This document shows, one piece after another, positions 19,841 to 35,434 of a stretch of DNA of 64,000 nucleotides. The notes beneath the pieces are model-generated. The model did no database searches. It was not told the origin of the DNA and worked only from the letters and a program-made list of their open reading frames with translations. Source of the DNA: Octopus sinensis (taxonomy: Eukaryota); assembly GCF_006345805.1 (NCBI RefSeq), contig NC_043005.1, positions 8,184,001 through 8,248,000 of the forward strand, given 5' to 3'. Position 1 is the first letter of the stretch. Each line of letters opens with the position of its first letter. The position numbers and the translations under genes are program-made.

Positions 19841-20310
19841 TACAGGGTAAATGTTTTTTAAATTTTCTCCTGGTTTACGGAATTGATTTTTATTTGCGGT
19901 TGAAGCTTTGGCTGTTATTTCTAGTGGGTGAATGGCCTATTATGGCCGTTCCTTGATTGTTGATATATATAAATATATATATATATATATGTGCATGTGT
20001 GTGTGTGCGTGTATGTTTTTATAACTGTGTTTGCCACCACGTCCACCATCGCTCGACAATCGATGTCGGTGTGTTTATGTTCCCGTAAAAAAGAGACCGA
20101 TATGATAAATATTAGGCTCACAAAGAATAAGTACTGGGGTCGACTTGTTCGATTGAAGGCGGTGTTCTAGCATGGCCGCAATCAAATTACTGAAGCAAAT
20201 AAAAGAAAAAAGAAAAATACATACACACACACGCACACACACACATACGCACGCACGCACACACACACACATACACACATATATATATATATACATATAT
20301 ACATACATAT

Positions 20311-23650: not shown

Positions 23651-23874
23651 CTCTTTTACTCTTTTACTCTTTTACTTGTTTCAGTCATTTGACTGCGGCC
23701 ATGCTGGAGCACCGCCTTTAATCGAGCAACTCGACCCTGGGACTTATTCTTTTGTAAGCCCAGTACTTATTCTATCGGTCTCTTTTGCCGAACGCTAAGT
23801 AACGGGGACATAAACACACAGCATCGGTTGTCAAGCAATGCTAGGGGGACAAACACAGACACACAAACACACAC

Positions 23875-24510: not shown

Positions 24511-25746
24511 AGCGCTCTTTTCGTTCCAGCAGTCGCCGAAGCAACACGTATTTGTTCGTCTCCCTGCGGCCATTAGGCACAACTTCATAAGCCAGCCCCA
24601 AACTCAACTCGTCCTGTCGAAAGACCCTTGTCCTACGTCCTGGTTTTGTTCTGTTTTTTATTTTTACCGTTATTGTTTTACGGTTTTGTATTCTTATTGG
24701 TGTCACGTATTCTGTATTTTTGTTCGTGTACTTCGTTCGTTTTCCGTCCTTGTGTTTATACATTCGAAGCTTTCTTCCATGGGATCTAATGCGCTTGGCT
24801 TAGATTTCCCATGGCGGGCTGCCATATCGGAGCAATCTCAAGATTAATCAGCCGAAATTGCTAAGATGATCTGGTTCTTGACTGATGACTGAGGGCTTCG
24901 AATGTCCCGTCCTGTGGTTCTTGTGTCGTCTCTGTGGTGTTTCATGTTCTTGTCCATTCTGTCTGTATTATTTTACTTTTACCTATATAATCGGCGGCTA
25001 CGTATCCACATTGTCCTTATACGATAAGTATATTTTTTCTCTAGCATTGATACGACTCTTAATCTGTCTCTTTCTCTCTCTCTCTCTCTCCTCCCTATTC
25101 CCCTTCCTTCTTTCCCTCTCCATCCGTTCCCCCCCTTCTACGTTTCTCTATCTCTCTCACCTCCAGCCCCCTCGATCTGTCTCTTTCTTCTCCTCCCTCG
25201 TCCACATTCTCTCTCTTTTCATCTGTCCCTTCTCCTGTCTTTTGTTCTCACGTGACCGCTAGCCACTGTTGAGCGCTCTTTCGTTCCAGCGTCGCCGAAG
25301 CAACACGTATTTGTTCGTCTCCCTGCGGCCATTAGGCACAACTTCATAAGCCAGCCCCAAACTCAACTCGTCCTGTCGAAAGACCCTTGTCCTACGTCCT
25401 GGTTTTGTTCTGTTTTTTATTTTTACCGTTATTGTTTTTACGGTTTTTGTATTCTTATTGGTGTCACGTATTCGGTATTTTTGTTCGTGTACTTCGTCGT
25501 TTTCCGTCCTCGTGTGTATACATTCGAAGCTTTCTTCCATGGGATCTAATGCGCTTGGCTTAGATTTCCCATGGCGGGCTCGCCCATATCGGAGCAATCT
25601 CAAGATTAATCAGCCGAAATTGCTAAGATGATCTGGTTCTTGACTGATGACTGAGGGCTTCGAATGTCCCGTCCTGTGGTTCTTGTGTCGTCTCTGTGGT
25701 GTTTCATGTTCTTGTCCATGTCTGTAATTATTTTTACTGTTTACCT
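24511..25746 (+). mobile_element. Partial tandem repeat (two ~475-bp copies, period ~762 bp) of a structured non-coding element between (TA)n tracts
   Basis: 24511-24984 is near-identical to 25272-25746. Contains hairpins (CCATGGGA/TCCCATGG, ACATTCGAAGC/GCTTCGAATGT) and hammerhead core motifs. Confidence 0.8.
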
Positions 25747-34281: not shown

Positions 34282-34535
34282 AAATATGCATATTACATAT
34301 ACATATACATATATATATGCGAATATAAACAAGAAGGGTAGTAATATTATTTACTACCAGGTGCCCAGCACAAAAGACGAATTAGTCATAAGACAAAAAT
34401 ATTATTCATATAGAAAAATATTATTCATGTAGTTATACAATTAAGGGCTCCTAAATAAAGATGCCGAGTGCTGGGAACACAAAAAGGGGATGAATTATCG
34501 AGAGTGAAAATCAAACGTTTACCGATAACTTTACA

Positions 34536-34609
34536 ACTCGTACCGCGGTTTCTGCTTCTTTCTAGCAAAACACAGAATATGTTTGCTAAGGCCAGCTTCA
34601 TCAGCGAGT
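34536..34609 (-). ncRNA. Type I hammerhead ribozyme, canonical core
   Basis: ACTCG CTGATGA AGCT..TAGCAAA/TTTGCTA..AGCA GAAA CCGCGG TA CGAGT: 5-bp stem I, palindromic stem III ACCGCGGT, GUA site. Confidence 0.75.
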
Positions 34610-34981
34610 CGCCTAAATTTAATCGAGGTCTGCAACGATGTGGGACTATGTGTTGAACCCGACTACTAGCAGATCTTAACTTTTCAAATCTCTGCGCAGA
34701 CGCAAAATTTACACCGGCATGCCGGGAAGAATTTTACGAATAAATCCATCATGTAGTATGCGAATATAAACAAGAAGGGTAGTAATATTATTTACTACCA
34801 GGTGCCCAGCACAAAAGACGAATTAGTCATAAGACAAAAATATTATTCATATAGAAAAATATTATTCATGTAGTTATACAATTAAGGGCTCCTAAATAAA
34901 GATGCCGAGTGCTGGGAACACAAAAAGGGGATGAATTTATCGAGAGTGAAAATCAAAAACGTTTACCGATAACTTTAACAA

Positions 34982-35057
34982 ACTAGCGTTACCGCGGTTT
35001 CTGCTTCTTTCTAGCAAAACACAGAATATGTTTGCTAAGGCCGCTTCATCAGCGAGT
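34982..35057 (-). ncRNA. Second hammerhead copy in the 445-bp array
   Basis: Same core and stem III. The 3' strand of stem I carries indels. Confidence 0.6.
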
Positions 35058-35434
35058 CGCCTAAATTTAATCGAGGTCTGCAACGATGTGGGACTATGTG
35101 TTGAACCCGACTACTAGCAGATCTTAACTTTTCAAATCTCTGCGCAGACGCAAAATTTACACCGGCATGCCGGGAAGAATTTTACGAATAAATCCATCAT
35201 GTAGTATGCGAATATAAACAAGAAGGGTAGTAATATTATTTACTACCAGGTGCCCAGCACAAAAGACGAATAGTCATAAGACAAAAATATTATTCATATA
35301 GAAAAATATTATTCATGTAGTTATACAATTAAGGGCTCCTAAATAAAGATGCCGAGTGCTGGGAACACAAAAAGGGGATGAATTTATCGAGAGTGAAAAT
35401 CAAAAACGTTTACATATATATATATATATATATA

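Follow-up and report, generated by a model that had tools for sequence, protein, structure and literature searches.

A candidate split-core hammerhead ribozyme in a dispersed non-coding tandem repeat of Octopus sinensis

Introduction

In the terms of Eckert et al. 2023 (PMC10085705), whose available sections divide the hammerhead ribozyme into blocks S, G and C, the circular order of hammerhead types I, II and III is S-C-G. A stretch of 64,000 nucleotides of Octopus sinensis DNA (NCBI RefSeq assembly GCF_006345805.1, contig NC_043005.1, positions 8,184,001 to 8,248,000 of the forward strand; hereafter the window, whose own numbering we use throughout) contains a motif in which the order is instead S-G-C and which matches no Rfam model. 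The motif was noticed in a reading of the letters made without database searches (the sequence-only reading), which called its strands A, C and B in their order along the DNA. It raises two questions: can a hammerhead core with its GAAA strand before its CUGAUGA strand be completed within one repeat unit, and where would the strands of its stem II lie?

Results

The motif lies in a dispersed tandem repeat

The window is microsatellite-rich DNA of a 2.7-Gb genome, and the motif is part of an insertion with the following features.

24511-25745, plus strand: whole insertion, a non-coding 762-bp unit repeated 1.6 times head to tail, with (TA)n flanks on both sides
24984-24989, plus strand: internal TATATA marking the junction between units, the point at which copies abut host (TA)n; putative start of reverse transcription
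25520-25667, plus strand: second ribozyme copy, with a predicted cut after C25599

The array consists of one unit at 24511-25271 and a partial unit at 25272-25745, which are 96.5% identical over 480 bp. The sequence-only reading had placed the motif in both copies of a tandem element, and we found 24831-24897 to be letter-for-letter the same as 25593-25659; to this can be added that the element is a 1.6-unit array of a dispersed family. The stem II strand of the second copy carries an extra C, which leaves 4 bp plus a bulge. In 30 loci of the same subfamily (3 kb fetched for each), copies were arranged head to tail in arrays of up to 2.3 units, the 3' end being mostly fixed against (TA)n and the 5' ends scattered. 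The internal TATATA lies 146 nt 3' of the predicted cut. An LTR-retrozyme or TRIM reading of the locus (480-280-480) was rejected, since other copies are head-to-tail units with variable 5' ends.

Iterated searches recovered 175 distinct cores in five subfamilies (SF1-SF5), the window belonging to SF1 and the clusters lying 20-42% apart; a sixth, young subfamily (SF6) was found after these. The best matches of SF1 and SF6 were 98-99% identical, and self-repeat periods of 686-856 bp were seen in most tandem loci of all five subfamilies. The pattern CCGAAA-N22-26-CTGANGA had 14,391 matches genome-wide compared with 625 for a reversed control, and 90 of the first 100 matches listed belonged to the family. 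From these searches, we estimate that the element is a dispersed non-coding repeat with about 14,000 copies in the genome.

No Penelope-type open reading frame was found within the unit among the 79 longest of 99 frames, which were scanned against Pfam. The same 79 frames gave two reverse-transcriptase matches, both outside the family's unit, together with one transposase, one DUF4817 and one weak Tmp39 match, and the searches made found no autonomous element sharing sequence with the family. The head-to-tail junction was present in contigs of four RNA runs, although this junction exists in genomic DNA too. Contig starts at 24834, 24838 and 24842 were left out of the evidence, as contigs cannot reveal ends or circles.

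Three other sequences in the window were recorded. A GUC-GAAA-GAC hairpin motif occupies 24617-24626 and recurs, again 5' of the ribozyme, in copies of SF2 and SF3. On the minus strand, 34316-35413 is a 448-bp tandem array of 2.5 units in which a classical-order type I hammerhead was seen by eye, with a 7-bp stem I in one copy, CUGAUGA, a palindromic stem III and a long stem II region that has A opposite A at its closing pair; this array is likely a second, ordinary retrozyme. Positions 20122-20211 and 23663-23752 hold a short dispersed repeat in two inverted copies with 84% complementarity; the repeat is probably a fragment of a SINE.

Stems I and III covary around a conserved core

The core of the first copy comprises four segments.

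24831-24843, plus strand: block S, made of a stem III strand, the AUC triplet and a stem I strand; predicted cut between C24837 and U24838
24844-24848, plus strand: 5-nt linker from stem I to stem II
24849-24862, plus strand: block G, made of the stem II 3' strand CAGCC, GAAA and a stem III strand
24876-24888, plus strand: half of block C, made of a stem I strand and CUGAUGA (C3-A9)

All three strands lie where the sequence-only reading had put them, with GAAA before CUGAUGA, and stems I (24838-43/24876-81) and III (24831-36/24857-62) are, as it had claimed, perfect 6-bp helices in hammerhead register. A descriptor of the S-G-C order that demanded at least 4 bp in stems I and III found exactly 2 sites in the window compared with 0.05 per Markov-resampled window, and with both stems at 5 bp or more it found 0 sites in 100 such windows. 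Across the five subfamilies, the majority base is shared at 12 of 12 core positions compared with 66 of 133 other positions; N7 is free (U, G, C or A), and G was never seen at H17, which is C or A in each family parsed.

The helices themselves change in a paired manner. Between subfamilies, stem III goes from GCAAU/AUUGC to ACAGU/ACUGU, which amounts to two compensatory pairs; a third (ACUGU/ACAGU) is present in 6 of 34 SF4 copies, and stem I changes from A-U to G-C in SF3. This covariation consists of a few subfamily-level events in a single genome. The collection of homologues and the covariation check that the sequence-only reading had proposed came out in its favour, as the A-C and A-B pairings (stems III and I) covary and CUGANGA and GAAA are kept; its suggestion of a rearranged, non-circular core is thus backed by the S-G-C order and by compensatory changes in both stems.

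At E up to 1, Rfam gave 132 matches in the window, none of them to a hammerhead: all were microRNA-family models on simple repeats except for one snoRNA. Eight family loci gave no hammerhead match at gathering thresholds either. We presume that the Rfam models are unable to represent the S-G-C order. A chance resemblance inside a repeat would also leave Rfam without a match, but it would not give the 14,391 matches against 625, the descriptor statistics or the conservation of the core. As covariation is seen in three mutually crossing stems, the third of which is described below, we exclude chance and regard it as next to impossible.

Stem II is predicted to form with an upstream strand

24817-24821, plus strand: stem II 5' strand GGCUG (G10.1 = 24817), detached from the CUGAUGA core

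The sequence-only reading had sought stem II among the bases that follow CUGAUGA, either as CTGA/TCAG with a CC bulge or as GGCT/AGCC with a 5-nt insertion, and either option would make this an ordinary type-SGC hammerhead. Both exist in SF1, where 33 of 33 copies are nearly fully paired, and GGCU persists after the core in SF1, SF2 and SF6. In a 26-row alignment with rows hand-picked from the 175 cores, CUGA/UCAG was paired in only 40.4% of cells and GGCU/AGCC in 76%, a value as high as which occurred in 0 of 500 shuffles, whereas the block G strand paired with an upstream segment in 94.5% of cells, with compensatory changes at 3 of 5 pairs. The closing pair of GGCU/AGCC is lost in SF3-SF5, where it is an A-C mismatch in 30 of 34, 29 of 34 and 25 of 34 copies, respectively. 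Furthermore, the bases after CUGAUGA sit in another helix (helix X, below) with a probability of about 1, which leaves both options at 0.0. Given that the upstream strand covaries with block G, neither placement of stem II proposed in the sequence-only reading held, and we consider an ordinary type-SGC hammerhead very unlikely.

The upstream pairing was found throughout the family: stem II is GGCUG/CAGCC in SF1-3, GGGCA/UGCCC in SF4 and GGCCU/AGGCC in SF5. In one fixed register it is 86-95% paired per subfamily compared with a median of 31-39% over 20 registers, and RNAalifold, unprompted, chose it together with helix X and hairpin Y. The segment adjoining A9, by comparison, pairs with block G at 12-44% only, which is chance level. 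We parsed 48 sites individually (2 in the window and 11 of 30, 25 of 25 and 10 of 20 loci in three sets, the 19, 0 and 10 loci that failed to parse being chance matches or copies with mutations or truncations). In 48 of 48 parsed sites, the base that follows A9 is unable to pair with 11.1, and the stem II partner lies 18-22 nt 5' of H17. The G10.1-C11.1 closing pair next to G12 is supplied by the upstream strand, with A opposite C11.1 at the 10.1 position in 10 of 34 SF3 copies. As judged from these sequence comparisons, stem II is predicted to pair with 24817-24821 and not with bases 3' of CUGAUGA; as its strand is upstream, the link between A9 and G10.1 would be open. In three family loci (L177, L261 and L298), an internal deletion has removed the stem II strand and brought hairpin Y next to block S.

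The sequence-only reading had also raised assembly between tandem copies. A tandem transcript offers every block order, so neighbouring copies or two molecules could in principle build a core of classical order in the way of dimeric hammerheads, and dimer cleavage has been reported for some animal retrozymes in the available portion of that literature. Such an assembly would still need a stem II strand beside A9, where pairing is at the chance level given above, and it leaves the conserved spacing of the blocks inside a single unit without a role. As one unit supplies all strands with conserved spacing, assembly between copies is unnecessary, and we rate it marginally below even the ordinary type-SGC arrangement.

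The core is predicted to open inside block C

Around the upstream stem II, three further helices complete the predicted fold.

24760-24774, plus strand: helix X 5' strand, pairing with 24891-24905 over 15 bp (pair probability 0.86-1.0)
24891-24905, plus strand: helix X 3' strand, beginning 2 nt after A9
24777-24814, plus strand: hairpin Y, between helix X and stem II
24822-24828, plus strand: 5' strand of a stem I-stem II interaction helix, pairing with 24868-24874, by analogy with the 'I' helix of PMC10085705
24868-24874, plus strand: 3' strand of the interaction helix

From 5' to 3', the elements are X', Y, II, interaction, S, G, interaction', I', CUGANGA and X. The pairing of ACAUUCGAAGC with GCUUCGAAUGU, which had been taken for a competitor of stem II, is instead a part of the conserved fold, namely helix X, and this helix is paired in 90-96% of cells of the 26-row alignment. 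Hairpin Y is absent in SF6 and is therefore optional. The interaction helix is 83-97% paired in SF2-SF4, has one U-C mismatch in SF1 (the window) and exists in SF5 as a variant recognized by eye; its value of 66.7% in the 26-row alignment is partly due to MAFFT, which shifts SF4-5 by one base.

Folding of the region gave z = -3.92. Pseudoknot-free ViennaRNA probabilities were 0.45 for stem II, 0.36 for stem III and 0.04 for stem I, and the pseudoknot-free minimum-energy structure is an alternative fold; since the three stems cross one another, low stem probabilities are expected of a pseudoknot-free model. Taking the covariation and the helices together, we find it very probable that the fold is conserved in the family.

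In the predicted structure, the cyclic block order would be SGC/CSG and the RNA would be opened inside block C, such that the chain enters and leaves via a fourth arm and not via stems I, II or III. In a circular monomer, the remaining 600-odd nt would hang off helix X. With neither helix X nor the upstream strand of stem II, an RNA limited to 24825-24910, the span that the sequence-only reading had suggested for a cleavage assay, would probably fail to cut even if the complete motif is active.

In the literature covered, which lay mostly outside subscription journals, we found neither a published description of the split-core layout nor a hammerhead in which helices separate A9 from G10.1. 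In a viroid hammerhead, the link from A9 to stem II contains one additional base. The available portion of Perreault 2011 lists core insertions at other places and none of the A9-G10.1 helix kind, and in the available sections of PMC10085705 insertions between A9 and G10.1 are at most 1-2 nt and block C is uninterrupted. The cleaving HRIMA-1 ribozymes described there have CUGAUGA-U-stem II, with an extra U after A9, which by analogy may serve as a small precedent for tolerance at this link.

Truncated copies start near the predicted cut

Copies with scattered 5' ends allowed start sites to be placed relative to the predicted cut, with +1 at 24838. Among 90 copies picked only by their G and C blocks, and counted by eye, 14 start at +6 to +14, about 11 start events fall over -1 to -100, and 45 extend 100 nt or more upstream of the cut; 76 of the 90 run through the predicted site. 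Rows with internal deletions, duplications or diverged full copies were dropped from this count (L177, L188, L200, L261, L285, L295, L298, L309, L318, L319 and L324), along with rows ending near -84 to -99, an alignment loss. In loci joined to (TA), also counted by eye and found with search patterns that favour near junctions, 26 of 29 start at +1 to +12, with 4 of the 29 at +1 (first 100 matches listed), and in a second set (first 100 of 522 matches) 75 of 98 start at +4 to +14 and 23 of 98 at +15 to +36. Under a uniform null, which ignores TA microhomology, p was 2e-7 for the 90-copy set, 4e-8 for the 29 loci and 3e-18 for the 98 loci; hot spots at +8 and +13 are attributable to TA microhomology there. 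The excess of starts 4-14 nt 3' of the cut, which falls off on both sides, is as expected if some templates end at the cut and would lend indirect support to cleavage, although a reverse-transcriptase stall could also be its source.

In three cases (L305, L306 and L328), a copy abuts a second one in inverted orientation, and one of these junctions lies within a few bases of the predicted cut. Inverted arms are described as typical of Penelope-like insertions in the available text of Craig et al. 2021 (PMC8557442). Outside the family, L197:1400-1560 contains a match with GAAA before CUGAUGA and some upstream complementarity, and is possibly another family or chance.

The start sites bear on whether the conserved fold cleaves itself. 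For a Penelope-like element of anole, reverse transcription starts inside the RNA, and cleavage is protein-dependent and dispensable for insertion in vitro. This makes a fold without cleavage of its own the main rival to our reading, either as a protein-assisted ribozyme or as a dead one kept as a binding or stalling signal for a Penelope-like protein. The anole hammerhead stays uncleaved without protein, and a signal of this kind would fit the 76 of 90 octopus copies that extend past the site and the grouping of starts a few bases 3' of the cut rather than at it. On the other hand, all catalytic positions are kept, with only N7 varying, among subfamilies up to 42% apart, and the C or A at H17 of every family parsed, never G, also speaks against this rival; read-through copies would also be expected from circles. 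We therefore judge a fold that does not cleave itself to be unlikely, if the least unlikely of the alternatives, and self-cleavage after C24837 to be probable.

A similar layout occurs in Naiad Penelope-like elements

The available text of Craig et al. 2021 (PMC8557442) describes Naiads as Penelope-like elements that prefer (TA)n insertion sites and lack a canonical hammerhead, with unexplained 'HHR_core' and 'HHR_half_core' cases that include Naiad_Ovul; there, this absence serves as an argument that the ribozyme may be no more than a parasite of Penelope-like elements. It also calls cephalopod Naiads long inactive and records a (TA)n-targeting Hydra element in octopus.

We examined by eye parts of the 3' tails of 33 of the 54 Naiad consensus sequences, named by file order, and 10 of the 33 had the split-core layout (Bfor, 3_Chem, Amil, Aacu, Anas, 2_Movir, Plae, Obim, Ovul and Esco), although stem I of Bfor is only 2 bp and the Esco copy is degraded. 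The ten reduce to about seven independent cases, spread over ctenophores, cnidarians, cephalopods and an acanthocephalan, and their helix sequences are unrelated, with G-C at 10.1-11.1. The other 23 tails comprised 2 with a local stem II in S-G-C order, 4 of classical order, 6 with other motifs and 11 with nothing resolvable.

Several of these tails deserve separate mention. In the available part of File S5 of PMC8557442, Naiad_Lpol and Naiad_Ptep have, by eye, the S-G-C order with a stem I of 6-8 bp and a stem III of 10-11 bp, and a hairpin placed between blocks S and G serves as a local stem II, with A9 again unlinked in a second split-core design; 2_Nbra, 3_Nbra, Hpol and Smim carry classical-order hammerheads with a long loop II that the descriptors of PMC8557442 missed. 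In the same file, Naiad_Mley, 4_Chem and 1_Movir have a common motif at the position of other Naiads' hammerhead, and Naiad-1_Chem, 2_Chem and Olur have one around GCTTACTC and CACCTGA. By its position in these partial tails, the GCTTACTC/CACCTGA motif is a candidate for another self-cleaving RNA. The motif common to Naiad_Mley, 4_Chem and 1_Movir presumably resembles the twister ribozyme.

In the octopus genome, an 18-mer of the Naiad_Ovul tail had 242 exact matches (control, 0). Of 20 such loci, 10 could be parsed, with the triplet GUA, and 7 of these 10 had a 6-bp upstream stem II 21 nt 5' of H17, the same spacing as in the window's family. BLAST gave no match between the window unit and the 20 loci, and four family motifs were not found in the available Naiad supplement text, where line breaks could hide a match. 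No Naiad open reading frame was found in five 5-kb stretches upstream of the Naiad_Ovul-type motif; one of the five contained a LINE-type endonuclease and reverse transcriptase, with other repeats before the motif.

Discussion

We propose that the locus is a non-coding tandem mobile element with a split-core S-G-C hammerhead that is likely active, and that it is likely copied by a borrowed Penelope-like reverse transcriptase; as a whole, we hold this to be a probable account. Transcripts of tandem units would be cut once per unit into 762-nt monomers, whose 5' and 3' ends would be held together by helix X, the interaction helix and stems II and III. Such self-paired monomers could be ligated into circles, as reported for type I retrozymes. 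Reverse transcription would begin at the unit's internal TATATA, into (TA)n, and on a linear cut monomer would run off after about 146 nt, giving an excess of starts just 3' of the cut, while on a circle or an uncut multimer the enzyme would pass the site and make longer and multi-unit copies. A linear template leaves room for only ~146 nt of cDNA; to account for the 76 of 90 copies in which the site is passed, a circle or an uncut multimer would be needed. We lean slightly towards a circular RNA template, and give a similarly slight preference to a Naiad-type enzyme as the mobiliser.

In its widest form, the proposal is of a fourth opening of the hammerhead: an active, non-circularly permuted ribozyme whose chain passes in and out by an added arm between A9 and G10.1 would have been kept in at least four animal phyla as the Naiads' missing ribozyme, and in this genome a circular-RNA parasite of 14,000 copies would employ it and would have left traces of its cut linear form among truncated copies; we find this somewhat more probable than not. 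The published six-permutation scheme assumes an uninterrupted block C, an assumption that the covariation-backed split-core motif breaks. Non-circular hammerheads, known from environmental RNA, would thereby be placed in animal chromosomes and at high copy number, and an answer is offered to why Naiads, dominant in many invertebrate genomes, seemed free of hammerheads. RNA engineering would also gain a new scaffold from a hammerhead whose three classical stems are closed internally and whose fourth arm is free.

Comparison with known systems places the element between several of them. Like Naiads, it shows a (TA)n bias, a fixed 3' end and 5' truncation (30 loci). The Naiad open reading frame, with an N-terminal GIY-YIG endonuclease and a reverse transcriptase, is absent from its non-coding unit, and cephalopod Naiads, going by the available text of PMC8557442, are far older than this element. 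The window's family and Naiads would thus have a common architecture only, recognized from layout without sequence homology.

According to the available sections of PMC10085705, type SGC cleaves and is found only in metatranscriptomes, CSG occurs in metagenomes, and both have a short linker from stem I to stem II (typically 3 nt) and a helix that joins the outer ends of these stems. The window motif is like them in its cyclic block order, its three mutually crossing stems, its short linker (here 5 nt) and its outer helix. It differs from type SGC in that block C is contiguous there and here has one or two helices between A9 and G10.1, in that its stem II strand lies 5' of the cleavage strand, and in being a chromosomal animal repeat of about 14,000 copies.

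Metazoan non-LTR retrozymes have type I hammerheads and units of 150-450 bp in the available text of Cervera and de la Pena 2020 (PMC7229834), and are proposed there and in Li, Clavereau and Pollet 2026 (bioRxiv 10.64898/2026.07.22.740005) to spread via circular RNA and Penelope-like enzymes; the available portion of the latter uses type I descriptors only. The octopus element is like these retrozymes in its non-coding head-to-tail repeats, its one hammerhead per unit and its low GC, and unlike them in its 762-bp unit and in a split S-G-C motif that type I descriptors would miss. On its layout and family comparisons, the element thus appears hammerhead-like and retrozyme-like, but fails the defining traits of type SGC and of the retrozymes described.
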